Shown here in pieces: positions 11,966 through 34,197 of a stretch of 58,992 bases of DNA. The translations under genes were made by a program, and so were the position numbers. This DNA is from a virus. Taxonomy: Duplodnaviria; Caudoviricetes. Under the pieces are notes generated by a model that made no database searches, was not told the DNA's origin, and saw only the letters and a program-made list of their open reading frames with translations. The first letter of the stretch is position 1, and the number at the start of each line of letters is the position of its first letter. The stretch spans positions 1-58,992 of the IMG/VR virus record IMGVR_UViG_3300049783_001388. One strand, given 5' to 3'.

Positions 11966-11997
11966 TTAGCGACAATTATATATGCCATTACTATTGC
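11966..11997 (+). promoter_or_regulatory. Candidate phage RNA polymerase promoter, copy 1
   Basis: TTAGCGACAATTATATATGCCATTACTATTGC; core ATRCCAYTACTATTGC shared with 24178 and 34182. Confidence 0.55.
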
Positions 11998-12011
11998 TTA
12001 AACGATATAAT

Positions 12012-12455
12012 ATGAATATAGAAGATTTAGAATTTGAGGGGCTAACTATTGAGCAATTCAAAGGAATTATTGCAAATGAAGTTAAGAATCAATTAGAAAT
12101 AATTAAAAAAAATAGATTTAAGATTTCAGCAAAAGATTTAGATAATGTCAATAGAGTAAGGATGTATTGGGATGAAGTTGCTTCTGTAGAATGTAAAAGA
12201 TTATTCAAACAAGAAAAGCAGAATATTGCACAAAATGTTAAAGAATATGGTATAGATAAGATATTTGAATCAATAGATTTAGTATGGTCTTCACCAATTA
12301 TGAAAGGTAAGAATCAATACCAAAAATATTTAAAATCTTTGGGTTGGTGCATGAAACCAGAAAGCTTAGAAAAGATATTAAAGGGGTATTACAATAGAGA
12401 CAAACAGGGATACCAAAATGAAGAATTTGACAAAGAAGACAATGGATTTGATTGA
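12012..12455 (+). CDS. Putative replication initiator-like protein
   Basis: Directly upstream of a DnaC-like ATPase; L.W...PE...KILKG.Y tail as in phage initiators. ATG 12012 is preferred because the ATG at 11982 lies inside the repeated motif. Confidence 0.5.
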   Translation: MNIEDLEFEGLTIEQFKGIIANEVKNQLEIIKKNRFKISAKDLDNVNRVRMYWDEVASVECKRLFKQEKQNIAQNVKEYGIDKIFESIDLVWSSPIMKGKNQYQKYLKSLGWCMKPESLEKILKGYYNRDKQGYQNEEFDKEDNGFD

Positions 12456-12999
12456 AATTGAAAAAGAATTATTTGCTGAGTTTAAGAGTAGAGTTGGAAA
12501 GGGTTTTGTAGATAGTGAATACATACAGAGAGCCATTAAGGAATACTCTAAATGTATCCACAGTAATACATCAAGTAAAGGTATAATGTTATCTGGGAGG
12601 ACTGGAACAGGTAAGACCATCTTATTAAAAAGCTTTGTTAAAGTTTGGGATAAATATAATTCAATAAAAATGGAAAATATAAAATCCTCAAATTTACAGT
12701 TTTGCACAACTAAGACTGAAGGGTATTCTAATAATTTAGATTTTAGGATGCCATTTTTATCGTTAGATGATTTTGGTTCAGAGCCTGAAGAAATAAAACA
12801 CTATGGTCAGACAATTACACCATTTATTGATATAATACAATATAGGTATGATATGAAAGATAAAAGGAAATTGTTATTTTCAACAACTAACTTAACGCCA
12901 AAAATGATTTCAGAAAGGTATGGTGACAGAACATTTAGCAGATTAAAAGGGGATAACTTAATATTAAAATTAGATGGGGAAGACAACAGAAAAAAGTAA
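12418..12999 (+). CDS. DnaC/IstB-like AAA+ ATPase (helicase loader)
   Basis: Walker A GRTGTGKT, Walker B LDDFGSE, TTNL, RYGDR.FSRL. Confidence 0.85.
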   Translation: MKNLTKKTMDLIEIEKELFAEFKSRVGKGFVDSEYIQRAIKEYSKCIHSNTSSKGIMLSGRTGTGKTILLKSFVKVWDKYNSIKMENIKSSNLQFCTTKTEGYSNNLDFRMPFLSLDDFGSEPEEIKHYGQTITPFIDIIQYRYDMKDKRKLLFSTTNLTPKMISERYGDRTFSRLKGDNLILKLDGEDNRKK

Positions 13000-13495
13000 G
13001 CCAGAATATATTGAGGGATCTTTATGCTTATACACAGATGGTTCTGCTATCACACATCTTGTTAATGTTAAGCGTTATGGTGGTTGGTCATTGTATGTAA
13101 CTGACCACAAGGATGAGCATATAGGTTTTCACGGTGGAGCAGAAAACACTACTATAAGTAGGATGGAACAAGAAGCAATGAACAGGGCATTAGAATTCTT
13201 AATAAAAAGAGTTAATTCTGGTGAAAATAGACCAATACATATTTATTCAGACAGCCAATTTGTTGTCAATAGTATAAATAAGGGGTGGCTATCAAACTGG
13301 AATAGAGAAAAGTTCATAGCAAGGGCAAATGCAGATATATGGAAACGTGTATGGGGCAATTTAGAAAAATTAAGATTAATGAAATCAGTTTATACTATAC
13401 ACCACATTAGAGGTCACCAAAAAGATCTTACCAAGCCACACATATTTGGAAATAATGTTGCTGATGTATTAGCTGATTATAAACAATTTTTATAA
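12974..13495 (+). CDS. rnhA: Ribonuclease HI
   Basis: YTDGS, TTISRME, IYSDSQ, NADIW, HIRGH, GNNVAD.LA motifs. Confidence 0.92.
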   Translation: MGKTTEKSKPEYIEGSLCLYTDGSAITHLVNVKRYGGWSLYVTDHKDEHIGFHGGAENTTISRMEQEAMNRALEFLIKRVNSGENRPIHIYSDSQFVVNSINKGWLSNWNREKFIARANADIWKRVWGNLEKLRLMKSVYTIHHIRGHQKDLTKPHIFGNNVADVLADYKQFL

Positions 13496-13710
13496 TGGCA
13501 ATAGTAGATTTTAAACAACAAATTAGACAAACATTCATAGATTCAGGATTTAAACCAAATGAAGATATTATAGAAAAGATTGATATATTACTGGACGATA
13601 CAGTCCCCAATAGTATTTGGAATAAGATTGCTATAATAACCCTTAGGAACCAAGCTATAGAGGCACAGTTAAAATTAAGTGAAATGGAAAAAAAATATAG
13701 TGGATCATGA
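13495..13710 (+). CDS. Hypothetical protein
   Basis: Translationally coupled ORF. Confidence 0.6.
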   Translation: MAIVDFKQQIRQTFIDSGFKPNEDIIEKIDILLDDTVPNSIWNKIAIITLRNQAIEAQLKLSEMEKKYSGS

Positions 13711-15365
13711 ACACTTATATTTTTACTAAGAATAATATCATATTTAAGTTTAGGTATGATAAAAATGTAATTCAAGACATTAAGGCTCTACTTAATGAAA
13801 CAAGTTACAATAAGATGGAAAAGACTTGGTCTTGCAGGAAGACACAATTTAATATTGATAGATTAGATTATTTATTCAAAATGTATGGCTTTATACAGGC
13901 TGATGAATCTAAAGAATTTCCTTGGGAAGAACTTAAAAAGATATCTGTAATAACTGAAAGCCAATTGCAAGCGGTTAAAGATTATGCTAAAGATTATGGA
14001 TTCAAATTGACACCAAGAGATTATCAATTATATGGGGTTGCATCAATGTTAAATTTTAAATCATGTATAAATGGTGATGCTATGGGTTTAGGTAAGACAG
14101 GTCAATCTATAATGTCTATTGAAATGGCAAATCTTAAACCCGCTTTAATAATTACTCCAGCTTCTTTAAAATATAACTGGCAAAAAGAATGGAATAAATG
14201 GGTAGATGGTGCAAACATATCTGTAATAGATGGCAAGCATAAAGACTTTGATGCGGACATTGTTATAATTAATTATGATTTATTAAATAAGAATTCTGCA
14301 ATATTAAAGAAGAAGAAATGGGCTTCTATGGTATTAGACGAAAGCCAATTCATAAAGAACTCAAAATCACAAAGAAGTAAGGTCGTCAGAACATTAGCCA
14401 AAAATATAGAGTATAAATTCTTATTAACTGGTACTGCGATAATGAATAGGGTTGATGAGATAATACACCCATTGAAAGTTCTAAATCTATTAGATAGTGA
14501 ATTCGGTGGATGGAAAAAATTTATATTTAAATATTGTGATGCACATTATGGCAATTACGGATTAGATATAACTGGTGCAAGTAATATTTTAGAATTAAAT
14601 TCTGAACTTAGGAAAACTTGTTATATTAGGAGAGAATTATCTGACGTATTAGATAACATACCAGAAAGAGTTGATCAAATAATTGAAGTTCCTTTTACCA
14701 ATAGGGGTAAATTATTATCAATAGCAAATGATGTTGTATCTTTTGTTGAAAAGACTGAAGGGTTAGAAGCTTCACTTAGAGCAGAACTTGCCATCCCACT
14801 AGTCACTTCTATTAAATTAAAGCAATATAATTCAATCGGGAAACAAAATGGCATTAAAGCATGGATAAAAGATTTTAAAGAATCTAGTGATGATAAACTA
14901 TTAATATTTGGATGCAATAGCAATTCTTTACAATATCTATCTAGTGAATTTAAATCCGTATTAATAGACGGTAGTGTAAGTTCAAAAAATAAACTAAAAT
15001 ATATAGAGGATTTTCAAAAATCTGACGAACAGCTTTTATTTGGAAATATACAGTCTCTAGGGACTGGCGTTGATGGTTTGCAAGAAGTTTGCTCCTATGT
15101 ACTGTTTATAGATTTACCAGATGTACCATCGTTAATAGACCAAGCAATAGCAAGGTTAAGGAGATCAGGTCAAAAAAAAGTTGTAAACGTATATTATGCA
15201 TTCGCCAAGGGTGGCATTGATAAATTAATGTGGGATATATTATCTGAGAAATATGAAATTGTAGATGCAATAAACAAAGGTGATAGCAAACGTATTTCTG
15301 AATCAAATAAAAAATTTAATATGAATCAAACATTATTTAATACAGTTAGAAATGGTGAATTTTAA
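13707..15365 (+). CDS. SNF2/HARP-like SF2 helicase
   Basis: RDYQ, DAMGLGKT, DESQ, LLTGT, QAIARLRRSGQ motifs. Confidence 0.92.
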   Translation: MNTYIFTKNNIIFKFRYDKNVIQDIKALLNETSYNKMEKTWSCRKTQFNIDRLDYLFKMYGFIQADESKEFPWEELKKISVITESQLQAVKDYAKDYGFKLTPRDYQLYGVASMLNFKSCINGDAMGLGKTGQSIMSIEMANLKPALIITPASLKYNWQKEWNKWVDGANISVIDGKHKDFDADIVIINYDLLNKNSAILKKKKWASMVLDESQFIKNSKSQRSKVVRTLAKNIEYKFLLTGTAIMNRVDEIIHPLKVLNLLDSEFGGWKKFIFKYCDAHYGNYGLDITGASNILELNSELRKTCYIRRELSDVLDNIPERVDQIIEVPFTNRGKLLSIANDVVSFVEKTEGLEASLRAELAIPLVTSIKLKQYNSIGKQNGIKAWIKDFKESSDDKLLIFGCNSNSLQYLSSEFKSVLIDGSVSSKNKLKYIEDFQKSDEQLLFGNIQSLGTGVDGLQEVCSYVLFIDLPDVPSLIDQAIARLRRSGQKKVVNVYYAFAKGGIDKLMWDILSEKYEIVDAINKGDSKRISESNKKFNMNQTLFNTVRNGEF

Positions 15366-16350
15366 AATAAACGAAGAAAATCTATTCTATTTTTGTGAAT
15401 GGATAAAAGAAAGGCAAAATGTATTTGTTAAGAAATCTGCTGGAGAAAAATATCCATGGACTGATAATGAAATAATTAAAGTTCATAAATTCACAAATGT
15501 ATTTAGGGTATTAGATTGGGAAAGCCAATTCTTAATTAGGCACGTAATAGGCAATGATGATAGGAGTTTAATAGATACAACCTTTAGGATATTATTATTT
15601 AAGCATATAAACTATCAGCCAACTTGGGAACATCTTGAAAATGTTTTAGGTGATATTACATTTACAGATACAATAATTTCTGAAATAAAAAGGGAACTGG
15701 ATTCTTATTGTAAGGGTCATAAAGTTTATAGCTCTGCATACCTTCAAGCAGCTAATTTTGTAAGGACTGATAGATGGGGGCATCTAAAGGGTACTGGTAA
15801 ACATAATGCATATCTAACAGTTTTTGAAAATCAATTATTTAATGTTAAAAGCTTAGACGAATTTGTTAAATTACACGATGTAAAGAATCTTAGAACATTA
15901 ATAGATAGCTTACAGGAAATTGATGGGGTTGGTAACTTTATGTCTTACCAATTTGCACAAGATTTAAATTACAGCCATTGGTGGAATCAGGAAATGAATA
16001 ATGAAACATTTGAAGGTCCAGGATCAATGCGTGGTGTAGATAGATGCTTTTCTAATCACACTAAGAAAGATTATGCAAAGCTAATAAAATGGACTTGGGA
16101 AAACATAGATGAAATGTTTAAAAATTTTGGACTAGGTGACCCACCAAAATTCAGGGGTATGCCACTTCAACTTACTGATATACAAAATTGTTTCTGCGAA
16201 GCTGATAAGTATATGAGAGGTCTTGGTGTCCAAACTCCAGGTGTATCTGGTAAATCAATAAAACAAAAATATAAACAAAGTGGGATGCGTAAATTAGAAG
16301 CGGTGCTACCAAAAAAATTTATTAATAGATTATGGAGTACGAATTCATAA
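15352..16350 (+). CDS. 5-hydroxymethyluracil DNA kinase (aGPT-Pplase1 family)
   Basis: ERQ...PWTD...KFTNVFRVLD, GVGNFMSYQ...DLNYS, GPGS.RG and DIQNCFCEADKY.R are the family signatures; adjacent to a thymidylate synthase homologue. Confidence 0.85.
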   Translation: MVNFKINEENLFYFCEWIKERQNVFVKKSAGEKYPWTDNEIIKVHKFTNVFRVLDWESQFLIRHVIGNDDRSLIDTTFRILLFKHINYQPTWEHLENVLGDITFTDTIISEIKRELDSYCKGHKVYSSAYLQAANFVRTDRWGHLKGTGKHNAYLTVFENQLFNVKSLDEFVKLHDVKNLRTLIDSLQEIDGVGNFMSYQFAQDLNYSHWWNQEMNNETFEGPGSMRGVDRCFSNHTKKDYAKLIKWTWENIDEMFKNFGLGDPPKFRGMPLQLTDIQNCFCEADKYMRGLGVQTPGVSGKSIKQKYKQSGMRKLEAVLPKKFINRLWSTNS

Positions 16351-17330
16351 CATTAGATGATGCCTTAATAGGTATGTCTAAGCAGTTACTAAAAAATGGA
16401 GTACCTAGAGGAACAAGAGGTTTTCAATGTATAGAAATGAGAGAACCTGTATTGATAAAAATTTGCGACCCAACTTCTAGGATAATTAAAAACCCTGCAA
16501 GGGCTTGGAGCCAAACATTGCCAATAGCAGAATCAATATGGTTATTAAATGGTGTAAACTCAATGCATTTACCTGGAGCAATAACTAAAAATTTGTATAA
16601 TTTTAGTGACGATGGTGAGTTTATGAGAGCTGGATATGGACCTAGGATTAGATCATTTAATAATTCAAATGATGACTATAAGATAAAATCCCCTGATGAA
16701 AGATTAGGTGTTGACCAATTAAGATATGTTGTAGAAAGTTTGATTAAAGACCCTAATTCAAGACAAGCATCTATTACAATACATGACCCTAATAAAGATA
16801 ATTTTAACCCTGATGGCTCATTAAAAACAACAAAGGATACACCCTGTACTAGAACAATAAAGTTTGAAAAGAAAAACGGTAAACTGGATTGTATTGTTTC
16901 TATGAGAAGTAATGATTTATTATGGGGATTTTCAGCAGTTAATGTTTTCAACTTCACACTTATGCAAGAAATGGTATCTATGTTAGTAGGTATCCCAATT
17001 GGGCATTATTATCATTTTGCAGAAAACTTCCACTATTACAAAAAAGTAGAAGATCAAATAATTAATATCGCTACATCTTATTTCAAATCAGAACATGAAA
17101 CGTTCCACTACAAGGGTTTAAATGGTGTTAATTTTGATTTCTTTGATTGTGTATTAACTAATGTATATCATTCAGCATTACAGTTAGTTGGTGGGACACA
17201 GAACAGATACTCATCTTTAGTTTGCCAAACAACTGGTATTGACATATTTGATGATATGCTATTGCAAATATTTAAATTTAAAAATAAATCGTTAAACGGA
17301 AATGAATTTTATAACAATAATCTAAATTAA
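16332..17330 (+). CDS. Thymidylate synthase homologue, probable dUMP hydroxymethylase
   Basis: YGPR, SRQA, PCT catalytic Cys, MRSND..WG...N (Asn suggests dUMP specificity), H..NFH.Y; coupled to the hmU DNA kinase. Confidence 0.8.
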   Translation: MEYEFITLDDALIGMSKQLLKNGVPRGTRGFQCIEMREPVLIKICDPTSRIIKNPARAWSQTLPIAESIWLLNGVNSMHLPGAITKNLYNFSDDGEFMRAGYGPRIRSFNNSNDDYKIKSPDERLGVDQLRYVVESLIKDPNSRQASITIHDPNKDNFNPDGSLKTTKDTPCTRTIKFEKKNGKLDCIVSMRSNDLLWGFSAVNVFNFTLMQEMVSMLVGIPIGHYYHFAENFHYYKKVEDQIINIATSYFKSEHETFHYKGLNGVNFDFFDCVLTNVYHSALQLVGGTQNRYSSLVCQTTGIDIFDDMLLQIFKFKNKSLNGNEFYNNNLN

Positions 17331-19597
17331 TGAATAGTAAAGATTTAATGAGTGACTATAATTTTATATCTAAATATAGTCAAAAAAAAGAAGATGGCAC
17401 TAAGGAAAATTGGAGTGAAAGTTTAGAAAGGATTTATGCAATGCATAAGGTTAAATATAAGGACATAATATCCGGTAAATATGGGGCTATTCTTTTAGAA
17501 CTTTTAGATTTCTGTAAAGATATGGAAACTGATAAGGCTGTATTATCAGCTCAAAGAGTTAGACAATTTGCAGACCCAAGGGAACATCGTGGAATCTTGA
17601 GACATAATGGAAAATTATACAATTGTGCAAGCTCTTACATGGACAGGATTGAAGTTTTCCACCAAACAATATTCGCATTATTAGAAGGATCTGGGGTTGG
17701 GTTAAGTTTGCAATATGAGCATATTTCAAGTTTGCCAAAATTCAAAAGAAATAAAAATGATAGATGTATCACTTATGTCATTGAAGACTCAATTGAAGGT
17801 TGGGCTGAATCTGTAAGATATTTAATAAGATCTTATGTAACACATACTAACGAGAGGCAAGAGTTTGATTATAGTAAGATAAGACCAAAAGGTGCAATTA
17901 TTGCAAACCAATTCTTAGCACCAGGACCTGATGGATTAAGGTTAAGCTTAGAAAAGATAAGAGATATATTGGAAAATGCTACTTGTGATGGTCCACGTAG
18001 ATTATTATCAATAGAAATTTATGATATAATAATGTGGGAAGCTGATGCTGTTTTATCTGGTGGAGTAAGAAGATCTGCAACCATAATGCTATTTAGCCAT
18101 GACGACAAACATATGTTATCTGCAAAGACTGGCGATTGGTATATCAATAATAAGCAAAGAAGATTATCAAACAATACTGTAATGTTGCATAGAGATACTG
18201 TGACGAGAGAACAATTTGATAGTGTTATGAAGTATGTTAAAGAATTTGGTGAGCCAGGATTTGGATTTACTAATTCTATTTACACTACTTTCAACCCATG
18301 TTTTGAAATAGGTAAGACACCTATAATTATGGAAACAGGTCAGACAGGGTTCCAATATTGCAACTTAACTGAAATTAATGGCACTTATTGCAATAGTAAA
18401 GAAAACTTAATGAAAGCTGTAAGAGCAGCTACTATCTTAGGTACATTACAAGCAGGGTATGATCAATTTAATTATTTAGGTGAAGTTACAGGTAAGATAG
18501 TAAGAAAAGAAGCTTTATTAGGAGTCAGTATTACAGGTTGGATGACAAACCCTGATATACTATTCAATGAAGAAATAATTTCTGAAGCAGCCAAGTATTC
18601 GTTAGAAGTTAATGAAGAAGTTGCAAATCTTATTGGTATAAATTTAGCAGCAAGGATAACTACAACAAAGCCGAGCGGTAATGCATCTGTACTACTTGGG
18701 ACAAGTTCAGGTATCCATGGTGACCATTCTGAAAAATATATTAGGAACATACAAGTTAATAAGGATGAGATAAGTGGAAAGGTATTTGCTTCAGTTAATC
18801 CATTTGCAGTACAAGATAGTGTTTGGTCTAATACTGATAGTGTGATTAGCTTCCCACTTAAAGCAGATGATAAGACAATTCTTAAAAATGATTTATTAGG
18901 CGTTAAACAATTAGAGTATGTTAAAAAAGCTCAAGAGTGGTGGGTGCTAAATGGTCATAGACCTGAATTGGCTACCGTAGGAGGGACTACACACAATGTA
19001 TCTAACACAATACAAGTACCGCCAGATTCATGGGATGAAGTTGCTGACTTTATTTGGGAAAATAGAGGTATTCTTAGCGGTGTAAGTTTATTACCAACTT
19101 CTGGTGATTTAGACTACCCACAAGCCCCATTTCAGAAAGTTAAAGATACTATTGATATAGTTAAGGAATATGGGGATGCGGTATTGTATGCAAGTGGGTT
19201 GATAGTAGATCAGATAGGTGTATTTGAAAACCTATGGGATGCTTGTGATTCTTTAAGGTATAATAAAGATATATCTATTGTCATTGATAGATTCGTTGAA
19301 ATAGATGGTGAAGTTGCCATTATACATGGTGACAATAAAGAGCAGAAGATTGCAAAAGTAAATAAGCAAGATTGGATACGTAGATTAGAAAAATTCTCTA
19401 TGAACCATTTTAATGGGAATTTAGATAATGCAATTAACTGTCTAAAAGATGTTGAACTAAATCATAGATGGAATAAACTTAATAAGGGTTTAAGAACCAT
19501 TAATTGGGATAATGTGGATTTCTCGAAAGAGTTTAAAGAATCTTCAGACCAAGTTGCAACGGCTTGTGCGGGAGGAAAATGTGAAATAAGTTTTTAA
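17330..19597 (+). CDS. Ribonucleotide reductase, RTPR/class II-like
   Basis: YNCA, GSGVG, DSIEGW, GGVRRSA, NPCFEI, CNLTEI, TTKPSG and C-terminal CAGGKC; no beta subunit in the window. Confidence 0.88.
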   Translation: MNSKDLMSDYNFISKYSQKKEDGTKENWSESLERIYAMHKVKYKDIISGKYGAILLELLDFCKDMETDKAVLSAQRVRQFADPREHRGILRHNGKLYNCASSYMDRIEVFHQTIFALLEGSGVGLSLQYEHISSLPKFKRNKNDRCITYVIEDSIEGWAESVRYLIRSYVTHTNERQEFDYSKIRPKGAIIANQFLAPGPDGLRLSLEKIRDILENATCDGPRRLLSIEIYDIIMWEADAVLSGGVRRSATIMLFSHDDKHMLSAKTGDWYINNKQRRLSNNTVMLHRDTVTREQFDSVMKYVKEFGEPGFGFTNSIYTTFNPCFEIGKTPIIMETGQTGFQYCNLTEINGTYCNSKENLMKAVRAATILGTLQAGYDQFNYLGEVTGKIVRKEALLGVSITGWMTNPDILFNEEIISEAAKYSLEVNEEVANLIGINLAARITTTKPSGNASVLLGTSSGIHGDHSEKYIRNIQVNKDEISGKVFASVNPFAVQDSVWSNTDSVISFPLKADDKTILKNDLLGVKQLEYVKKAQEWWVLNGHRPELATVGGTTHNVSNTIQVPPDSWDEVADFIWENRGILSGVSLLPTSGDLDYPQAPFQKVKDTIDIVKEYGDAVLYASGLIVDQIGVFENLWDACDSLRYNKDISIVIDRFVEIDGEVAIIHGDNKEQKIAKVNKQDWIRRLEKFSMNHFNGNLDNAINCLKDVELNHRWNKLNKGLRTINWDNVDFSKEFKESSDQVATACAGGKCEISF

Positions 19598-19703
19598 GCT
19601 TTTAAGATAATTTTGTTAACTTTTAACCCTATTGTATGTGTATAAATTAAAAATGCCTTAAGGACATTTATATATACATATAGTAGGGCTATAAACTAAA
19701 TTT

Positions 19704-21639: not shown

Positions 21640-21642
21640 CAT

Positions 21643-22743: not shown

Positions 22744-23071
22744 TATAAAAGATGTTAGTGGTATAAATGGTAGGGATCATACAGAATATACATCAAAGAC
22801 AAGTGGTAAATATTCATTGTATGTACAATACCTTGGAGGTGGATCACATATTGCGAATAGGGTAAATAACAAAGATAGATACCTTGAAGCTTTAAAGAGG
22901 GTAGCATCTCTATCGGCTGGAACAGAATCACAACCAATATCTGTTTACGAAATTAGAGAAACAGTTGGAGATATAGATGCAATTGATTTATCTGGAACCA
23001 TTAAGAAAATTACCAAACAAACAAAGCCATTTTTCATAGCAAAGAAAATATGGGGAATAGATATAATTTAA
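22730..23071 (+). CDS. Hypothetical protein
   Basis: ORF filling the gap between sbcD and recA. Confidence 0.6.
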   Translation: MSRVNIKDVSGINGRDHTEYTSKTSGKYSLYVQYLGGGSHIANRVNNKDRYLEALKRVASLSAGTESQPISVYEIRETVGDIDAIDLSGTIKKITKQTKPFFIAKKIWGIDII

Positions 23072-23072
23072 T

Positions 23073-24062
23073 ATGGCGAAAAATACAAAAAGTTCAGGAT
23101 TACAAGGCGTAACGGATTCAATAAATGCCTTGCTAGGGAGTGGAACAATGCAAAGTTTTGAAGACACAACCTTGCATGATGTCACTTGTACAAGTAGTGG
23201 TGGTATCGCATTAGATATTGCATTAGGTGGAGGATATCCACAAGGCAGGATAATAGAAATATATGGTCCAGAATCATCTGGTAAAACTACATTAGCAATC
23301 CATGCAGGGGCAGAAGTTCAAGACATTGGTAAAGCAGTAGTATTTTTAGATTTAGAAAATGCATTTGATCCAGAGTATGGGGCTGCATTAGGATTAGATT
23401 ATTCTAAAGATAAATGGGTATTTTCACAACCAGAATGTGGAGAGGATGCATTTACAATAATTGAACAATATGTGCAACTCCCTGAGGTTGGAATGATAAT
23501 AGTAGATTCAGTTGCTTGTATGACACCTAGAGCAGAAATGGAAGGTGAGTTTGGGGAATCTAAAATGGGTCTCCATGCAAGACTAATGTCGCAAGGTTTT
23601 AGAAAATTAGTTGGCAAAATAAAGAAAGCAGACTGTACTTTAATATTCTTAAACCAAACAAGGGATAAGATTGGGGTTATGTTTGGTAATCCTGAAACTA
23701 CGACAGGTGGGAATGCACTTAAATTCTATGCAAGCCAAAGATTAAGGGTTGGTAGGAAACAAGGTGTAAAAGGGAAAGATGGAATACTAATAACTAATCA
23801 CGCAACTGTAAAGGTTGAAAAGAATAAGATTGCTCCTCCACATAAGAAAGCAGAGTTCGAAATAAGATTTGGAGAAGGTATTGATAAAATTAGTGAGATA
23901 TTAGATATTGGTGCAGACTGGGATGTGATAGAAAAGAAAGGTGCTTGGTATTATTATGATGGAACAGCAATTGGTCAAGGTAAGGAAAAAGCTAGGGAAA
24001 CACTTATAGACAATATAGAGTTGCGAGAAGAAATAGAGAACAAGATTAGAGAGTTTATGTAG
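23073..24062 (+). CDS. recA: RecA recombinase
   Basis: GPESSGKTT, VDSVA, ARLMSQ, NQTR, GGNALKFYAS, KNKIAPP. Confidence 0.98.
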   Translation: MAKNTKSSGLQGVTDSINALLGSGTMQSFEDTTLHDVTCTSSGGIALDIALGGGYPQGRIIEIYGPESSGKTTLAIHAGAEVQDIGKAVVFLDLENAFDPEYGAALGLDYSKDKWVFSQPECGEDAFTIIEQYVQLPEVGMIIVDSVACMTPRAEMEGEFGESKMGLHARLMSQGFRKLVGKIKKADCTLIFLNQTRDKIGVMFGNPETTTGGNALKFYASQRLRVGRKQGVKGKDGILITNHATVKVEKNKIAPPHKKAEFEIRFGEGIDKISEILDIGADWDVIEKKGAWYYYDGTAIGQGKEKARETLIDNIELREEIENKIREFM

Positions 24063-24161
24063 TCTAATTGAACCTATAGATTTTATTTTAAGTGTTTAAC
24101 GCATTTTTAAATAATCTTTATAGGTTTTTAGTACATTATACTATATTAATTTTAAAATTGC

Positions 24162-24193
24162 TTAGGGATGCTTATAAATACCACTACTATTGC
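24162..24193 (+). promoter_or_regulatory. Candidate phage RNA polymerase promoter, copy 2
   Basis: TTAGGGATGCTTATAAATACCACTACTATTGC. Confidence 0.55.
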
Positions 24194-24204
24194 ATTAAAC
24201 GCAC

Positions 24205-24225
24205 AAACTATAAACTATAAACTAT
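24205..24225 (+). repeat. AAACTAT x3 tandem repeat just before a start codon
   Basis: Three exact copies, then AAATG. Confidence 0.85.
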
Positions 24226-24227
24226 AA

Positions 24228-24572
24228 ATGAAAAAAAATATACCATTCTTAAAGAACACAACAATAGATCTTATACCATGTTTTGACTACCATGTAAATG
24301 ATTACACTTGGTCCATACTAAAAGATGCATTAAATGTAGATAGTTGGGATGAAGTTGTAAAGGTGGAACAATACATAATTGACGAATGTCCAGATTACCC
24401 AAACATTTTTCCATTAAGTGATAGGGAAGAATTAGATGTTTCTAGTATCCCGCATAAATTATATAAATGCAAAATATGGGGAACTGATTCTGTTGAAATA
24501 CAACACTTAAATAGTGAAGAAAGATATGCCAGTATATTCTATGTCAGTATAAATGATTTAGGATTATGGTAA
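24228..24572 (+). CDS. Hypothetical protein
   Basis: ORF with A-rich start context. Confidence 0.65.
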   Translation: MKKNIPFLKNTTIDLIPCFDYHVNDYTWSILKDALNVDSWDEVVKVEQYIIDECPDYPNIFPLSDREELDVSSIPHKLYKCKIWGTDSVEIQHLNSEERYASIFYVSINDLGLW

Positions 24573-27059: not shown

Positions 27060-27550
27060 AAGAATTCATTTGCAGTTCCTGTGGAAATGATTCAACAAAT
27101 GGTTCATCCTTCCACAAATTATGTCTAACTTGTAATAAGGTGAGGCTAGGTAGTGGTAATCCCAAATCATATAATACTCCCGTGAAAAAATCAAAATACT
27201 TTAATTGTAAAGTATGCGATTGTCAAACATCACAAGGGAATTCTTTCCATAAATTATGTCTAAAATGTAACCAAAGTCGCTTAATTCACAAAGCTAAATC
27301 TAGGGTTAAAAAAAAGCCAAAAGTTTACAGAAAGAAACCGACAGGCGAGAGGGATATGTTTATAGAAATTTGGGATTCACGACCACACATTTGCACAAAT
27401 TGTGGAGATCCATTAGGCAATGAGCCAAAAGTTCATTTCTTTTCACACATTAAACCTAAAGGGAAGTACCCAGAATTAAGATTAAAGAAAAGCAATATTA
27501 AGATACTTTGTATTGAATGTCATCGAAATTTAGATTTTGGTGGACTGTAA
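27050..27550 (+). CDS. HNH endonuclease with duplicated N-terminal zinc fingers
   Basis: Two CxxC...SFHKLCxxCN units, then CTNCG...HIKP...PELR...NIKILCIECH. Confidence 0.8.
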   Translation: MQLKEFICSSCGNDSTNGSSFHKLCLTCNKVRLGSGNPKSYNTPVKKSKYFNCKVCDCQTSQGNSFHKLCLKCNQSRLIHKAKSRVKKKPKVYRKKPTGERDMFIEIWDSRPHICTNCGDPLGNEPKVHFFSHIKPKGKYPELRLKKSNIKILCIECHRNLDFGGL

Positions 27551-27631
27551 TAGTAAATATCTGAAACGATTTTTTGTAATGATGAAAGTTTAAAGCTTTT
27601 ATCCTGTACACAATACAACAAACTATAAATT

Positions 27632-27934
27632 ATGAGATACTATAGAATATGGGATTTGCCTAAAGCAGTCTACAATAAGATAAATTCAAAAGAAGTTGAT
27701 GAGTTATGTGAATCAATTTTCCCAACACCAACGTTTGATAAATTAAGAACAGATTCATTTCATTTCTTGATACTTACTGGGGATGTAACTTTCGTTATAA
27801 ATTCAAAATTAAATAATGATGGGGATAGGGTTAATACTATATTATCAGATGATAAAAATTTAGTAAAAACAGACGCTATACTTTCAACCGTCGGGTTTGG
27901 TATGCCACTAAAAAGCGAACCGAACAATGGGTAA
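27632..27934 (+). CDS. Hypothetical protein
   Basis: ORF with AAACTATAAA leader. Confidence 0.6.
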   Translation: MRYYRIWDLPKAVYNKINSKEVDELCESIFPTPTFDKLRTDSFHFLILTGDVTFVINSKLNNDGDRVNTILSDDKNLVKTDAILSTVGFGMPLKSEPNNG

Positions 27935-28592
27935 ATCAAAATATCAAGACTTTTTAGTTTTTGATACAGAAACTGGAGGTCTACCATCTAAAGCAAATCC
28001 TGCTTTTTATGGTGTAGCATTAACAGAAGTTGCATTAGTGATGGTCAGCCCAGAATTAGAAATAGTTGGTACAGATAGTTTCTTAATAAAACCAAACTAT
28101 AAAGATGGATTAATGTATAGTAGCAAAGCATCTGAAGTATCTGGGATAACATTAGATATGTTAACTAAAGAAGGTATAACCCCAAAGGTTGCATTAGATA
28201 GAACTTTAGATTTTATTAATTCATATAGGACTTCAAATAAGAAACCTACATTGGTCGGTCATAATATTAGATCATTTGATAATCCATTTATGATTAATTG
28301 GTTTGATTTTTGTAAAGAAGATTTATATAAATGGGTTAATAAGTTAGATATTGATACTCTAGATTTATGCCATAAAGTATTCCCAGAAGCACCTTACTAT
28401 AATCTAGGGACAATGTGTGACCAATACGATATAGAATTAACAGATGCTCACAGGGCATTGCCAGATACAATTGCTAATGCAGAATTGTTTATTAAAATAT
28501 TTAAAGATTTAAGAGGTGAATCTGAAAACAAAATTTCAGACAAGGTAGAAGAAAAATCAATAATAGATAAAATTAATAAATTCCAATTCTAA
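27927..28592 (+). CDS. DEDDh 3'-5' exonuclease (Pol III epsilon-like)
   Basis: FDTETGG, GHN..FD, IDTL, AHRALPD. Confidence 0.92.
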   Translation: MGKSKYQDFLVFDTETGGLPSKANPAFYGVALTEVALVMVSPELEIVGTDSFLIKPNYKDGLMYSSKASEVSGITLDMLTKEGITPKVALDRTLDFINSYRTSNKKPTLVGHNIRSFDNPFMINWFDFCKEDLYKWVNKLDIDTLDLCHKVFPEAPYYNLGTMCDQYDIELTDAHRALPDTIANAELFIKIFKDLRGESENKISDKVEEKSIIDKINKFQF

Positions 28593-30047
28593 ATGCTACA
28601 AACAACTTTTTTAGATGAATTATTTAAGGGTTGTACGATAAATGAAGAAATTTTTAAGAATGTATCTTTACATTTAAAAGATAGGGATATTAGTAAAGAT
28701 TCTTTAATACATAAAAAAGTATTAAATGTAATTAAGAAACTTTATAGGGAAAAGCCTGACGAATTACCATCAATAGGAGTTGTAGAACAAATGGCTCTTT
28801 CAGTTGGTGGTAAATCTTTATCATTCAATAAGATATACGAAGCTAATCGTACTAACCCAAATGATTTATTATTAGAATTACAAAAATACCTACTCAAGGT
28901 TAGGGTGGAGCAATCCCTATTTGATTTCCAAGAAGATTATAATAATGGGGATCATGACAATTCAATATTAAAACTAAAAGATAATCTAGTAGATGCTATT
29001 GATTTTAATATTGTTGGAGATAACTACCCTTCCACAAACCCATTTATAGATTTCATAGATTTAATAAATAATATTGATGATAGCGATGATGATAATTTAA
29101 AAGTGCCATTTGGTATCCCACCATTAGATATAATTAGTAAAGGTGGTATGGAATTATCTTCAACAGCATTATTTATATTAAGATCTGGAGTTGGTAAATC
29201 CACGCTACTTAAATTCATTGGGTACATGGCATCAAGGCTAGGTTTCTCAGTATTACATTTCCAGCTAGAAGGTTCAAAAGAAGAAGCACAATTAAAGTAT
29301 AACCAATTATGGACAGGGTTAAGGTATTACGATCTAACAAAGGGTTATTTTGGTGATATGAAACCTAAGACTATATGGTGCAGCAAACAAGGGAAAATTG
29401 TTATTGATGATAAGCTGGAATATCTTAAATTCGTTAATTCAAAGATGGATTACCTTAGAGAAAGGATGAACAAATTCATTATAGAAATAGTTTCTTTTGA
29501 AGAGTTTGGTACACCAGATATGAAAGCTGTAGATTCTAAAATTACTGAATTCACAGAAAAGTTTAAACATCCACCTCATTTAGTTATAGTAGATAGTTTA
29601 GACTTAATGTATCCAGGTGATGGATTTAAATATGGTCCAGATATACAGTCTACAAAGATGAGGATACAGAATAGTGCTAAAGCTATGAAGAATATTGGGC
29701 TAAGGCATAAGACTAGAGTTATATCTGCAACTCAAACTGGAGATATAAAAATGGAAGATTGGAACAATGAAGATTTTGTAATAGATAGATCTAGATCTAT
29801 GGGTGATAAAAATGTTGCAAACCCTTTCAGTTTTGTATTTAGTGGGAATAGGACTATTAAAGAAAAGAAACTTAATGAGATAAGGTTCTTTATTGATAAG
29901 CTTAGAGATTATGAAGGAGAAGGTATGGTATTTTCTTTGCCTACTGATTATGACCATGGTAAAGCTATTAATTTAAGTCAATGTAAAACTTATGAAGAAA
30001 AAAAAGATGAAAAAAATAAAGGAGAAGTTGAAGAAAGTGAAGAATGA
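28593..30047 (+). CDS. Replicative DnaB-like helicase
   Basis: GIPPLD, RSGVGKS, FQLEG, VIVDSLD, SATQ, DKLRD. Confidence 0.85.
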   Translation: MLQTTFLDELFKGCTINEEIFKNVSLHLKDRDISKDSLIHKKVLNVIKKLYREKPDELPSIGVVEQMALSVGGKSLSFNKIYEANRTNPNDLLLELQKYLLKVRVEQSLFDFQEDYNNGDHDNSILKLKDNLVDAIDFNIVGDNYPSTNPFIDFIDLINNIDDSDDDNLKVPFGIPPLDIISKGGMELSSTALFILRSGVGKSTLLKFIGYMASRLGFSVLHFQLEGSKEEAQLKYNQLWTGLRYYDLTKGYFGDMKPKTIWCSKQGKIVIDDKLEYLKFVNSKMDYLRERMNKFIIEIVSFEEFGTPDMKAVDSKITEFTEKFKHPPHLVIVDSLDLMYPGDGFKYGPDIQSTKMRIQNSAKAMKNIGLRHKTRVISATQTGDIKMEDWNNEDFVIDRSRSMGDKNVANPFSFVFSGNRTIKEKKLNEIRFFIDKLRDYEGEGMVFSLPTDYDHGKAINLSQCKTYEEKKDEKNKGEVEESEE

Positions 30048-30234
30048 TCTACTTGCTATAGATAGTAATCTATTACTAGGTTCATTGATAATATTATGGG
30101 GTTTTGTGATATTGTGGCTCTTAGGCATAACGTTCGAATATGTATTTTCTTCATATAAGGGTGTACTGGGATTTTGGTTATTTGTTTCACAACTGTTTGC
30201 AATACATAAATTATTAGCAAATGGAGATAGATAA
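29992..30234 (+). CDS. Small membrane protein
   Basis: Two hydrophobic helices; the start may be a few codons downstream. Confidence 0.55.
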   Translation: MKKKKMKKIKEKLKKVKNDLLAIDSNLLLGSLIILWGFVILWLLGITFEYVFSSYKGVLGFWLFVSQLFAIHKLLANGDR

Positions 30235-31255
30235 ATTTGATGTAATTAATTCATTTAAATTAGCTAAACTTGGTAATAACGGATTCTATACTTCAAAGAC
30301 TTTAGAATGTCCAAGTTGTGGCAAGAAAGAAGAAAAGTTTGGTATAAAATTCATAGGAAAAGGTGGGCTTGTGAATTGTTGGGTATGTAACTATAAGTCA
30401 AGTATATTTAAATTCTTAAAGCAAGTTGGTAAATCTAATTTAATAGAGTTTGAGCATAAACAGAATTATGGTGAATCTATATCTTTTATTAAATTGCTAG
30501 AAAACGATAATTACAATAATACAACTAAAGTTTTTGTAGAATTACCCGAAATAAAGCTACCGAGGAAGTATAATAGAGTAACCAAGAGCGAATATTTACA
30601 AAGTAGGGGCATTACACCAAAACAATTAGAAGACTTCTTGGTAGGTACGGTAAAAAGTATTTTATATCCAGAGTTAAAAGATTATTTAATTTTTCAAATA
30701 TTTCAAAACAAGAGGTTAGTTGCATTATTAGCAAGGACACCATTTGATAAGGAATGGCATAAGAAAAATTTAGAAGATAGTAAAGTTGGTAAATGTAAAA
30801 TGAAACCAAGATACTGGAATACTAAAGGTGTTGAATTCCAAGAAATACTAGGTGGGTTAGATGACATAACTGATAGCGTACACACTGTGATAGTCGTAGA
30901 AGGTTTATTTGATAAATTAAATATTGATAATATTTTAATTGAAGATGATGGTATAATTTCAGTATTTACATTTGGTCACAGTTTTAGCGATAGACAGATT
31001 GAATTAATTAAATCAAATAATAATATAAAGACTGTTATATTAATGTATGATAATGATTCTTTAATGCAAATGAAGAAAATATCTATGGTATTAATTAATG
31101 AGTTTGATAATGTATTTATTTTACCAATATTAGAAAAGGGTTTAGATCCAGGTGACATTACCGCAAAACAATTTGAAAAATTAATTTCAACAAAATTATT
31201 TAATCCAGTTGATTATTATTCATCATTCATAGATATTAAATTATGGCAAAATTAA
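30221..31255 (+). CDS. DNA primase (zinc finger + TOPRIM)
   Basis: CPSC...CWVC, YLQSRG, VVEGLFD, YDND, DPGD. Confidence 0.88.
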   Translation: MEIDKFDVINSFKLAKLGNNGFYTSKTLECPSCGKKEEKFGIKFIGKGGLVNCWVCNYKSSIFKFLKQVGKSNLIEFEHKQNYGESISFIKLLENDNYNNTTKVFVELPEIKLPRKYNRVTKSEYLQSRGITPKQLEDFLVGTVKSILYPELKDYLIFQIFQNKRLVALLARTPFDKEWHKKNLEDSKVGKCKMKPRYWNTKGVEFQEILGGLDDITDSVHTVIVVEGLFDKLNIDNILIEDDGIISVFTFGHSFSDRQIELIKSNNNIKTVILMYDNDSLMQMKKISMVLINEFDNVFILPILEKGLDPGDITAKQFEKLISTKLFNPVDYYSSFIDIKLWQN

Positions 31256-31374
31256 TAGTAAATATTAGATTATCTAATGCTAAATTATTGAAAAAGAAAA
31301 TTAAAAAATTGAATAAATTAGTTAAAGAGATTAATGAATTTCAATTAATTGTAGAAGTTAAAGAATTAAATTAA
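31243..31374 (+). CDS. 43-aa basic protein not in the ORF track
   Basis: MAKLIVNIRLSNAKLLKKKIKKLNK..., overlapping the primase stop. Confidence 0.5.
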   Translation: MAKLIVNIRLSNAKLLKKKIKKLNKLVKEINEFQLIVEVKELN

Positions 31375-31477
31375 ATGAGATTAATGAGCCTAAATCTCAG
31401 ATAGCTAGTCTATTTATAAGTGGTTACAGATCGAGGATAGTCCTCAAATTATAGTGTTAATTAAATAATTATTTAGA

Positions 31478-31969
31478 ATGAAAAATTTTTTATTATTGTT
31501 TGTTGTGTTGGCAATTAGTTTGTCAACTTATGCAGAAAAGCCGAAAGTTCCAATCGATGAAGTCGTCGATGTAGGGTACGCAGATTTAACAGTTAAATTA
31601 GTTAAGACTACTCAGGTAGCTAATACTGATATGATTGTGATTAATGTAGCCCACACTGATGTAATTTTAAGATTAGATCAACCATTACTTGTATTCCAAA
31701 TTACGTCAAGTAGAGAAAATATAGTTAACCTTTTAGAAGATTTTTACCAACCTCAGGTTGGTATTGGTTTGATACCCATAAAGGATAGATATAAATATTT
31801 GGAGGTCAAGAACTACTTATATGTTTCAACATTAAATACGTATGCATACGTAATGAAACCTCCCCAATATAAATTAAGTCGATATAGTAAATGTTACCTA
31901 AATATAAATAGTAATTATAAGAATACTTATTTTATATCTAAGTATAGGGATCTTCCTCACAAGATTTAA
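31478..31969 (+). CDS. Hypothetical protein with signal peptide
   Basis: MKNFLLLFVVLAISLSTYA is Sec-signal-like. Confidence 0.6.
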   Translation: MKNFLLLFVVLAISLSTYAEKPKVPIDEVVDVGYADLTVKLVKTTQVANTDMIVINVAHTDVILRLDQPLLVFQITSSRENIVNLLEDFYQPQVGIGLIPIKDRYKYLEVKNYLYVSTLNTYAYVMKPPQYKLSRYSKCYLNINSNYKNTYFISKYRDLPHKI

Positions 31970-31989
31970 ATAAAGACAATAACATAATT

Positions 31990-32018
31990 AAAAGCCTCAA
32001 TCAAAAGTTGAGGCTTTT
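31990..32018 (+). terminator. Intrinsic terminator
   Basis: AAAAGCCTCAA / TTGAGGCTTTT. Confidence 0.8.
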
Positions 32019-32032
32019 ATATAAACTATAAA

Positions 32033-32503
32033 ATGGCAAAAAAAAAGATACAAATAATAGATTATTTAGATATACTCCAAAGAGAGTGGGTACAATTCTT
32101 TTGGGCATACAATAGTTTCCCTAAAAAATATAGAGAAAAGTATTTAGAATTATTTAAAGATAGAGAAATTAAAATCATTGATATATCAAGTAAGATTTTA
32201 GTTTCAAATATATTTTCTGACATGGATGTTTTAGAAAATAAGTTTAAAGAAGTATTTACAGGATTAGGTGAACCTAAATTTAATTATAGGGGTGATGATG
32301 TAAAGGGCAAAATTCACCATTTCAATATATTTTATTTCTTTGTAGGTGAAGAAGTTAAGTGCATTAATACTGATACAAAAATATTAGTTAAAGAGGTTAG
32401 CCCAAACCTTGATTTTTTAATTGGGGATTCAAAAATAGATATAAATCATGTATCTTATGATTTTAATTTCAAAATATTTAAGCAATGGCTAAAACAGTTT
32501 TAG
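32033..32503 (+). CDS. Hypothetical protein
   Basis: ORF with AAACTATAAA leader. Confidence 0.65.
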   Translation: MAKKKIQIIDYLDILQREWVQFFWAYNSFPKKYREKYLELFKDREIKIIDISSKILVSNIFSDMDVLENKFKEVFTGLGEPKFNYRGDDVKGKIHHFNIFYFFVGEEVKCINTDTKILVKEVSPNLDFLIGDSKIDINHVSYDFNFKIFKQWLKQF

Positions 32504-33069
32504 TAGAGAAAGGTAAAAAAGGTTCATCTTTAAAAGTTGAAAAAATTTTAGGGGTAGAAGATAAAACACTTGATATAGTAGAAGTGTTAAAGGTTCATGA
32601 TGATGTAATATTACCAGAGTACCAAACAGAAGGTTCAAGTGGGATGGATATAAGGGCTTATTTTGAATCTGTCACTGACTTGAAGCAGTTAAACCAAGAC
32701 ACACACCCAATTGAGGTGACTGTAAATGGGGCTATAATGTTACCTTCAGGATCAAGGGTTATTATACCATCTGGCTTAAAGATATCTATGCCAATTGGTA
32801 TGGAAGCACAAGTTAGAAGTAGAAGTGGTTTGTCTTTAAAGAAAGGTTTAGTTGTATCACAAGGTATTGGCACAATAGATTCTGACTATAGAGGTGAAAT
32901 TGGGATTTGCATTACAAATATTAGCAAGTCTAAACAGTATATATTAAAAGGAGAAAGGATTTGCCAATTAGTTTTCGCAAAAGTAGAAAAAATTCAATTT
33001 AATGAAATTACCAAATTATCTTCCACTGAAAGAGGTGAAGGAGGGTTTGGATCAACTGGTGAAAAATAA
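32485..33069 (+). CDS. dut: Trimeric dUTPase
   Basis: SGMDI, RSRSG, GTIDSDYRGE, ERICQ, RGEGGFGSTG. Confidence 0.97.
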   Translation: MAKTVLVEKGKKGSSLKVEKILGVEDKTLDIVEVLKVHDDVILPEYQTEGSSGMDIRAYFESVTDLKQLNQDTHPIEVTVNGAIMLPSGSRVIIPSGLKISMPIGMEAQVRSRSGLSLKKGLVVSQGIGTIDSDYRGEIGICITNISKSKQYILKGERICQLVFAKVEKIQFNEITKLSSTERGEGGFGSTGEK

Positions 33070-33096
33070 TAACAAAATTCATAAACTATAAATTAT

Positions 33097-34074
33097 ATGG
33101 ACGCAATAAATCCAAGATACAAAGAAAAACTAGATAGAGTTTCAAAGATATTTAGTGAAACAAAATTTGTTGTTAATACAAGGGGTCGTATTGATAATAA
33201 ATTACATCATACCTTAAAAAATATCCCAAGAATATTATCTAGGAATATTATTGTGATTACCATACCACAAGAAGTAGAGCCATTAAAAAATTTACTTGAA
33301 GAATTAAATATTGAAGTAGATGAAGTATGGGGTATTCATCATAATTATTTAGGTCAAGCTAGGCAAGATACATTAGACAGATTTAAATGCAATGTTGTAT
33401 TCATTGACGATATGTTTACTTTCCATGCAAGAGAACACTCTGACACAGGTATCGAGACTACATATATGCTAAAACAAATTAGTAAAAAAAATTTTAATGC
33501 AGATAAGAGAGAATCAATAATGATTGATATGTTCGAATGGGTTGTAGAGAAATTGAATCTTGGATGTTTTGGTGTCGTTGGTATAAGTAATAGACCATCA
33601 AATAATAATATAAAATTTGATGAAGTTTATAATGATAGAATTGGTGGTTTCTATGGCATTAACTATGAATTATTTCGCACACTGAAAAATGAGCCAAAGT
33701 TAGATGACATGATAACAAAGCAGGATATGTATATCATATTACATTTCTTACAAAATGGTATCCCGTGTGTTAAGTCTTCTAAGTATGCATTTAACAGAAG
33801 TGGTGGGGCAAACTCAAAGGGCGGATGCAGTATATATAGGGATGTTGGATTAATGGACCATGATGCAAGAGCATTAAAATCTTTATTCCCACAATATGTA
33901 AACCTAAAAGATAAGAGTGCAATTTCTTGGAAAAATGTAGGGGATGTAAAAACATTCAAAGATGTTATGGTACAATGGAAAAAGGCATACACTGGAGAGG
34001 AAGTTTACAAATTATGTGGATATTCACAGAAAGAGCCAATTACAAAAGATAATACGCCAAACCCTTATAAATAA
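33097..34074 (+). CDS. GT-A fold glycosyltransferase, TET/JBP-associated (TAGT-like) DNA glycosyltransferase family
   Basis: NTRGR start, GQARQ, FIDD, KQD....L..LQ.G, NSKGGCSIYR, LFPQYV, WKKAY pattern of nucleic-acid GT-A enzymes. Confidence 0.75.
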   Translation: MDAINPRYKEKLDRVSKIFSETKFVVNTRGRIDNKLHHTLKNIPRILSRNIIVITIPQEVEPLKNLLEELNIEVDEVWGIHHNYLGQARQDTLDRFKCNVVFIDDMFTFHAREHSDTGIETTYMLKQISKKNFNADKRESIMIDMFEWVVEKLNLGCFGVVGISNRPSNNNIKFDEVYNDRIGGFYGINYELFRTLKNEPKLDDMITKQDMYIILHFLQNGIPCVKSSKYAFNRSGGANSKGGCSIYRDVGLMDHDARALKSLFPQYVNLKDKSAISWKNVGDVKTFKDVMVQWKKAYTGEEVYKLCGYSQKEPITKDNTPNPYK

Positions 34075-34165
34075 CTCTAAGATACATTTTAAGCAATATT
34101 TAAACCATTTTAAGCAATCTTTGCTTATTTATGGTACAATTTGTAAGCATTAAATATCTAGTGCG

Positions 34166-34197
34166 TTAGGGACGCTTTATTATACCATTACTATTGC
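34166..34197 (+). promoter_or_regulatory. Candidate phage RNA polymerase promoter, copy 3, upstream of the RNA island
   Basis: TTAGGGACGCTTTATTATACCATTACTATTGC. Confidence 0.55.

Follow-up and report, generated by a model that had tools for sequence, protein, structure and literature searches.

A repeated 33-nucleotide element ahead of gene clusters in an uncultured Bacteroidetes-type phage: candidate promoters and the polymerases that might read them

Gene layout of the window and the repeated element

The window analyzed here, that is, the whole stretch of DNA under study, is a complete viral record (IMGVR_UViG_3300049783_001388; linear, 58,992 bp, rated as about 56% complete) of an uncultured phage from marine/ice samples, and its noteworthy open reading frames (ORFs) all lie on the plus strand. 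It contains a gene for a T7-type single-subunit RNA polymerase (RNAP) and, ahead of several gene clusters, copies of a short motif, ATRCCAYTACTATTGC, which a reading made from the sequence alone (hereafter, the sequence-only reading) had taken for the cognate promoter of that enzyme. The three strong copies of the element that includes this motif are designated c1–c3, and a degenerate copy is designated c4. The left part of the window (1–10654) encodes DUF285-repeat and immunoglobulin (Ig)-domain proteins, with an amidase gene at 10794, and this late/lysis block ends at a terminator-like hairpin with a T run (11871–11892, +; −12.2 kcal/mol, z −2.5), 74 nucleotides (nt) 5′ of c1. The cluster behind c1 comprises ORF 12012, a P-loop protein, RNase H, an SNF2 helicase, a 5-hydroxymethyldeoxyuridine (5-hmdU) DNA kinase, a thymidylate-synthase-like protein, and ORF 17330. 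The cluster behind c4 comprises ORF 19704, ORF 20302, an Mre11-like phosphoesterase, and RecA, and that behind c2 comprises ORF 24228, a coiled-coil (SbcC-like) protein of 669 amino acids, an HNH protein, an exonuclease, ORF 28593, a Toprim primase, a dUTPase, and ORF 33097. Lastly, c3 heads an RNA island, the first transfer RNA (tRNA) of which is tRNA-Lys(CTT). The ORFs and gene contents thus bear out the earlier statement that the three strong copies head a replication cluster, an sbcC–primase cluster, and an RNA island, respectively.

The motif ATRCCAYTACTATTGC has exactly three matches in the whole record, at 11982–11997, 24178–24193, and 34182–34197, all on the plus strand and all as originally reported, and no match occurred in 100 dinucleotide-preserving shuffles, which corresponds to a chance expectation of 0. 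When up to three mismatches were allowed, 11 matches were found against 2.56 expected, and the upstream TTAG element was absent from all four of the additional plus-strand matches inspected. The conserved block is 33 nt long and consists of TTAGsGA, nine partly conserved, A+T-rich nucleotides, and the 16-nt core; in each of the three copies, the start of TTAG therefore precedes the core by 16 nt, as the sequence-only reading had it. Among c1–c3, 22 of the 33 columns of the element and 14 of the 16 columns of the core are invariant, and the G of TTGC stands at the 3′ edge of the core in every copy. In c1 (11966–11998, +), the element reads TTAGCGA-N9-ATGCCATTACTATTGC-T, and 15 nt separate the G of TTGC from the ATG at 12012. 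The corresponding sequences are TTAGGGA-N9-ATACCACTACTATTGC-A in c2 (24162–24194, +), with 35 nt to the ATG at 24228, and TTAGGGA-N9-ATACCATTACTATTGC-T in c3 (34166–34198, +), with 17 nt to tRNA-Lys(CTT). The copies had been described as intergenic, which holds for c2 and c3, both located in gaps between plus-strand ORFs, and holds for c1 only if its gene starts at the ATG at 12012; in c1, the motif's own ATG at 11982 opens an in-frame extension of the ORF.

A repeat search revealed the degenerate fourth copy, c4 (19658–19690, +), which reads TTAAGGA-N9-ATACATATAGTAGGGC-T and precedes ORF 19704. This copy keeps TTAAGGA, the spacer, and ATAC; its core is identical to that of c3 at 10 of 16 positions, and as a whole it is 70% identical to c1. 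The sequence-only reading had suggested scanning the rest of the genome for more copies; the window is already the whole record, and c4 was the only addition, with no further exact copy. When the record was scanned with a weight matrix built from c1–c3, these three sites scored 47–50 bits and c4 scored 13.1 bits, so that c1–c3 lead everything else in the 59 kb by more than 30 bits. Beyond c1–c4 and a site at 34614 on the minus strand, no site in the record exceeded 12 bits. The minus-strand site (34614–34646; 12.7 bits, 13 of 16 core positions) lies inside the RNA island and is conserved in the relative L203, which is described below; because it is conserved there within the RNA region, its likeness to the element probably arises by chance from a palindromic RNA stem. 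No paralogy exists among the first genes behind c1, c2, and c4, and a duplicated gene segment was therefore ruled out as the origin of the repeat, which is not a by-product of gene duplication. The claim that TTAG belongs to the right arm of a dyad could not be reproduced: the inverted repeats close to one copy do not match those of another in sequence, position, or spacing, and a common dyad was rejected.

The phage-encoded RNA polymerase

The RNAP gene (39899–42268, +) encodes a protein of 789 amino acids that matches PF00940 (E = 3.4e-58) and is, as judged from its sequence and model, a complete T7-type enzyme with intact catalytic motifs. In an alignment to T7 RNAP, the DGSCNG, KRPVM..PYG, and IHDSF motifs are kept, and the AlphaFold model (predicted local distance difference test score, 86.6) has a long β-hairpin at residues 644–674, where T7 RNAP has its specificity loop. 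In Foldseek, almost the entire protein superposed on T7 RNAP (TMq 0.70), with 20–22% identity in structural alignments. Pfam returned no N-terminal-domain match for the 789-residue polymerase, and the structural comparison identified a T7-like N-terminal domain. The polymerase is complete and intact, and promoters for it must exist somewhere. The nearest named polymerases are those of Tenacibaculum and Cellulophaga phages, with approximately 30% identity, and polymerases P0001, P0003, and P0004 are 90%, 70%, and 66% identical. Scans of IMG/VR with the polymerase alone, with a 17-sequence alignment (best identity, 31%), and with a 9-sequence alignment detected no close relative, and no relative was found in a scan of prokaryote genomes.

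A distance of 5.7 kb separates c3 from the RNAP gene downstream, and two terminator-like hairpins intervene (approximately 34683–34702 and 34967–34984, in the region 34683–34990, +); situated between the RNA island and dnaE, they stand between c3 and the dnaE–RNAP genes. Isolated host-like boxes that lack a TCCAA element occur at 38696 and 39219.

Host-type promoters of the early region

The early region (43265–58139, +) contains many small ORFs and a class of host-type promoters with the box TAnATTTR and TCCAA exactly 28 nt upstream. TCCAA is present at this spacing in 11 of 14 aligned early promoters, or in 12 when TCCAG is also counted. The family has at least 14 copies, each composed of an A+T-rich tract, TCCAA, 28 nt, TAnATTTR, and a conserved leader ending in TAAAAACAGTAcAAAATG, and no promoter of this type was seen between approximately 12 and 43 kb. 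The pentamer AT[GA]CC lies directly 5′ of the box both in the core of the c-sites and in 6 of 16 host-type early promoters, and this arrangement is found at only 0.18% of positions overall. In those six early promoters, it forms an arm of an inverted repeat (GGCATAT...ATATGCC) that abuts the box and has the look of an operator.

In PMC6847099, the Bacteroidetes −7 element is given as TANNTTTG and the −33 element as TTTG, the latter being described as weakly evident, and T−12, A−11, T−8, T−7, T−6, and G−5 of the Flavobacterium −7 element are nearly invariant; the early boxes match this −7 element. Taken together, this match and the source of the nearest named polymerases (Tenacibaculum and Cellulophaga phages) point toward a host of the Flavobacteriia type. 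The window thus offers a clean two-class promoter map of an uncultured phage, with the host-type TCCAA-N28-TAnATTTR class on one side and the c-class on the other, whichever enzyme reads the c-sites.

An upstream cassette common to the c-sites and some early promoters

Each of c1, c2, and c3 is preceded by a hairpin and a T run. The hairpin before c1 is the one that ends the late/lysis block. The one before c2 (24070–24132, +; −17.9 kcal/mol, z −5.2) is long and A+T-rich and lies after recA, 30 nt before the site, and that before c3 (34108–34135, +; −8.5 kcal/mol, z −3.5) is a small TAAGCAA/TTGCTTA hairpin within the TTTTAAGCAATCTTT element, approximately 35 nt before the site. The upstream module of c1 (11909–11965, +) begins with an element starting with TTTTAGAG, 57 nt 5′ of TTAG, and continues with an A+T-rich spacer that ends in AATTTAAAAT; equivalent plus-strand modules occupy 19600–19657 (c4), 24105–24161 (c2), and 34108–34165 (c3), so that a TTTTAAG-type element stands 57–58 nt before TTAG in all four c-sites. 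An alignment of these four sites with three early sites revealed a common module of approximately 90 nt that runs from TTTTAAGCAATCTTT through AATTTTAAAA to GC(C)TTA(A/G)(A/G) and GCTTA. In the early site at 53432–53520 (+), TTTTAAGCAATCTT and, farther on, GCCTTAAAC are followed by the host-type box TAACTTTG in place of the c-core; its sister sites are located at 56099–56190 and 58023–58140 (+). After the module, the c-sites have the 16-nt core, whereas two of the three early sites have the host-type TAACTTTG. Because a TTAGGGA-type element also precedes host-type boxes, at a different spacing, the core and not TTAGGGA defines the c-class; TTAGGGA is most readily understood as belonging to a shared regulator-binding module, with the core as the class-defining part.

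Each c-site would accordingly form the last 33 nt or so of a regulatory cassette of approximately 125 nt set after a terminator-like hairpin. The first 90 nt or so of this cassette, from the TTTTAAG element to GC(C)TTA(A/G)(A/G), which also occur before host-type promoters, would probably bind a phage regulator, and the TTTTAAG(C)-type elements are probably its binding site. TTTTAAG occurs 15 times on the plus strand, nine of them intergenic, and TTTTAAG(C)-type elements are located at 11909, 19600, 24105, 34087/34108, 53432, 56099, and 58023, at a constant distance of 57–58 nt from the TTAGGGA-type boxes that follow them. In L203, TTTTAAGGC occurs three times at 1018–1050, in the orthologous place.

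An architecture shared over approximately 125 nt at seven sites, in a genome whose early region is full of repeated terminator–promoter cassettes (families D8, D9, D13, and D16), might also be produced by a mobile or recombining intergenic cassette, whose copies are alike through recent spread or gene conversion and whose 16-mer has no specific function. We consider this very improbable. The core, with 14 of 16 positions invariant, is far better conserved than the surrounding spacer, and contigs from four DNA runs included a strain variant, X4 (98–99% identical), for which the rows listed in the c2 gap comprise four differences in the flanking sequence and none within the 33-mer; this has a chance probability of approximately 0.4 and, not being significant alone, is uninformative.

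The recurrence of the upstream module with other promoters can also be understood if the 33-nt element is an operator or another regulatory site, such as a repressor site, an antiterminator loading site, or a replication or recombination signal, and if the real promoters are weak A+T-rich host-type boxes up to 60 nt upstream. TAnnTTT[GA] boxes are indeed present upstream of c1 (11924), c4 (19608), and c2 (24147), c4 retains the upstream half of the element (the near-palindrome ATGCCTTAAGGACAT) better than the core, and ATGCC is an arm of an inverted repeat in the early promoters. These upstream boxes, however, lack the TCCAA-N28 of the early class, c3 has no such box, and the c-copies show no consistent dyad symmetry. 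A start signal better explains their strict single orientation and their uniform proximity to the first gene or tRNA, and an operator-type function is, in our judgment, rather improbable.

Candidate readers of the core

When both polymerases are taken together, the c-sites are quite probably promoters. Their promoter status, the identity of the polymerase that reads them, and the start site are all three inferred; the position, orientation, and conservation of the sites fit promoters of middle genes, that is, those for replication, recombination, thymidine modification, and the tRNA island. That c1–c3 and, more weakly, c4 serve these genes through the phage RNAP is a tentative reading to which we give slightly less than an even chance. 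The phage RNAP is likewise the single most likely reader of the core, at a probability that stays just short of one-half. Under this reading, the 16-nt core would most likely be the recognition sequence of the T7-type enzyme, which would melt TATT and start at the G of TTGC; its specificity hairpin would read ATRCCAY (−14 to −8), and the −17 to −13 region would have its counterpart in the A+T-rich spacer. As for the earlier proposal that these are cognate promoters of the RNAP, the promoter-like position, orientation, copy number, and conservation and the intact RNAP all stand, and the step from the motif to that RNAP is a plausible conjecture.

The likeness to T7 promoters had originally been drawn from copy 2 with a one-base gap. 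What remains of it is a resemblance of the 3′ half of the core to positions −8 to +1: with the T7 consensus as quoted in the sequence-only reading, seven of nine positions are matched without a gap in c1 and c3, a level that is reached at 0.17% of window positions. The contiguous conservation over 16 nt, as in T7-type promoters, also favors the phage enzyme. A sigma-54 promoter was rejected by eye, the GG of the −24 element being missing.

The resemblance to a host promoter is of a similar order. No exact TAnnTTTG box is present, as had been stated; nevertheless, TACTATTG within the core is one mismatch away, with TTAG exactly 19 nt upstream, and TTAG-N19-TACTATTG as a whole differs from the Bacteroidetes −33/−7 consensus by one mismatch per box, which is equaled at 0.105% of positions. 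The T7 and host resemblances do not decide the matter, since their chance probabilities are similar and the two overlap in part. The sites may instead be middle promoters read by the host RNAP after its redirection by a phage protein (a divergent sigma factor, a sigma appropriator, or an activator), with TACTATTG as a −7 box of purposely reduced strength and TTAG(GGA) at N19 replacing the −33 element; the phage RNAP, itself a middle-gene product, would then serve late genes that lie mostly outside the record. This is possible and on balance unlikely. Apart from the canonical 19-nt spacing, it accounts for the AT[GA]CC that lies beside the box in the core and in 6 of 16 early promoters, which hints at common machinery or a common regulator, and for the upstream module common to three host-type promoters. 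On the other hand, an A occupies the place of T−8 in all three strong copies, in contrast to the nearly invariant T of the host −7 element as given in PMC6847099, and c4 matches only three of the six −7 positions listed there. The conserved 7-nt ATRCCAY would, moreover, fall in a spacer that sigma factors usually do not read. Six-frame searches of the approximately 56%-complete record detected no sigma-70 region 2 or 4 domains (PF04542, PF04545, and PF08281), and a Pfam scan of 20 early ORFs left 19 without a domain and one with an SLT domain, with no recognizable regulator among them; searches of this kind often overlook phage factors, and the record lacks 44% of the genome.

One useful relative, L203, was obtained from a metagenome scan, and 22 kb of its 73-kb record were compared with the window. 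Its polymerase is 70% identical, with differences at approximately 13 of 46 residues of the specificity hairpin. At the L203 site orthologous to c3, TATTG and the leader TATATTTTATT are kept, ATACCAT is replaced by AGCCCC, and TTAGGGA is gone, and the box there reads CATTATTG, with four of the six invariant positions and no TTAG. The host-type TAtATTTR boxes, by contrast, are kept in L203. This change in the 5′ half of the core, with the host-type boxes kept, fits a determinant that evolves with the phage, and it speaks against a host −7 box at this place. A scan of IMG/VR for the 16-mer returned more than 117 single chance matches, with no contig carrying two among the matches listed, and a scan with the leader that the window and L203 have in common returned 12 matches, all in unrelated context.

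Several observations weigh against recognition by the phage RNAP, in addition to the host-like spacing and the shared AT[GA]CC. Only three strong copies exist, and an element at −30 with a module extending to approximately −90 is foreign to T7-type promoters. L203 is only one relative, its site retains just the 3′ half of the core, and the 22 kb yielded no further copy of the L203 core variant. L203 also has only approximately 17 nt between the terminator of the RNA island and the next ORF, so that transcription of its dnaE-to-polymerase genes seems to require read-through that originates at the c3-like site; such dependence would mean that the c3-like site must work before the phage polymerase exists, as a host-read promoter would. 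The position of the RNAP gene is a further point in favor of the host enzyme, since in the window it lies downstream of c3, and no large gene of the replication block comes after it. Tenacibaculum phage Larrie has this order too, with the polymerase gene immediately ahead of those for the portal and terminase. In phiKMV and Xp10, such a placement accompanies the transcription of late rather than middle genes, and the late region is mostly absent from the record. Against the cascade proposed in the sequence-only reading, from the host RNAP to the phage RNAP to the replication genes, stand the position of the RNAP gene at the end of the replication block and downstream of c3, the equally good fit of the core to a one-mismatch host −33/−7 promoter, and the irreproducible dyad.

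Other features of the window

The 5-hmdU DNA kinase (PF18723, E = 1.9e-68) adjoins the thymidylate-synthase-like protein at 15352–17330, and judging from this pair, the phage DNA probably carries hypermodified thymidines. Two very large DUF285 (BspA-like leucine-rich) repeat proteins (3–5471 and 5869–7764) with internal repeats of a 75-nt period are encoded at the end of the late block. At the other end of the window (58760–58990), at least five head-to-tail repeats with a period of 41–42 nt (GGTTC..TTCTTGACTATC..) reach the very end of the record and could be origin iterons or part of a terminal repeat.

The RNA island (34214–35121) contains two tRNAs (Lys-CTT and a second one with an anticodon unreadable by ARAGORN) and approximately 600 nt of partly conserved sequence. 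In the matching place of L203 (3536–4087), ARAGORN called a gene resembling transfer-messenger RNA (tmRNA), and Rfam identified no tmRNA in the RNA island of either the window or L203. A third copy of the T-arm-like 13-mer TGGTTCGAATCCA is located at 38644. A small basic ORF of approximately 37 amino acids (35022–35135), starting with MKKRKRCKS, overlaps the start of dnaE, and a similar ORF precedes dnaE in L203 (4343–4452). Over recA (22971–24304), the contig depth was 10- to 20-fold higher, with many loose ends, in all four DNA runs; this excess arises because cellular recA of other organisms maps there at 80% likeness and is not derived from the phage.

Significance and comparison with known systems

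A literature search found no described promoter for this Bacteroidetes-type phage lineage. If the core is the cognate promoter, it and the RNAP would constitute a T7-type polymerase/promoter pair in a new lineage, unusual in lying within a regulator cassette and on DNA that is probably hypermodified. The core sequence, being unlike that of the T7 group, would then be a candidate orthogonal expression part, and the pair would be a case for studying how a single-subunit polymerase reads hypermodified thymidines. The fullest version of this idea is speculative and has a small probability: a self-sufficient T7-type polymerase from a deep uncultured lineage (identity to the RNAPs of cultured phages, 31% or less) would read a compact 16-bp promoter in a regulator-controlled cassette on thymidine-hypermodified DNA, as a new orthogonal pair whose activity may require, or be tuned by, the base modification and a TTAGGGA-binding phage factor. 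If the host enzyme reads the sites, they would represent a class of phage middle promoters for the unusual Bacteroidetes sigma factor and would point to a redirecting factor.

Among known systems, the promoters of the Bacteroidetes housekeeping sigma factor resemble the c-sites in that TTAG-N19-TACTATTG has the right spacing and five of the six nearly invariant −7 positions given in PMC6847099, with TTAG matching TTTG at three of four positions at exactly N19. They differ in that c1–c3 have A for T−8, TCCAA-N28 is missing, and the boxes are not kept in L203.

The spacing between TTAGsGA and the core is fixed in c1–c3, as is that of TTAAGGA in c4, and related GCCTTAAAC boxes precede host-type promoters at a different spacing. 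T4 middle promoters consist of an activator box near −30 and a host −10 element, and the c-sites share with them a bipartite structure in which a phage-specific upstream box stands at a fixed spacing from a host-like box before replication genes. Unlike in T4, the upstream box is shared with host-type promoters, where its spacing differs, and no MotA/AsiA-like or sigma-like protein was recognized, the MotA and AsiA families themselves not having been searched for.

Phages of the phiKMV/Xp10 type and Cbastvirus phages such as Larrie have three traits in common with the window: a replication block that ends with the T7-type polymerase gene, a single coding strand, and a lysis block situated ahead of the replication block. 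In phiKMV and Xp10, it is late genes that the phage polymerase transcribes, whereas the candidate sites in the window head middle genes. The polymerase of Larrie is only approximately 30% identical, and exact 11–14-mer counts over its whole genome revealed no comparable repeated intergenic motif or promoter-like family; its repeated 12-mers are either operator-like repeats in a small-ORF region or coding repeats.

The c-sites resemble the T7 class II/III promoters of the T7 group in that a contiguous, near-identical sequence of approximately 16 nt stands ahead of gene clusters in several copies of one orientation, the genome also encodes an intact T7-type polymerase, the bases immediately 5′ of the core are A+T-rich, and the 3′ end of the core consists of an ACTAT-like stretch followed by G. 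The differences from the T7 group are that the window has only three strong copies, with an extra TTAGsGA at approximately −30 and a module extending to approximately −90, and that the polymerase gene comes after one copy instead of preceding all of them. In addition, the polymerase is 20–22% identical to T7 RNAP, and the phage DNA on which it would act is probably thymidine-hypermodified.

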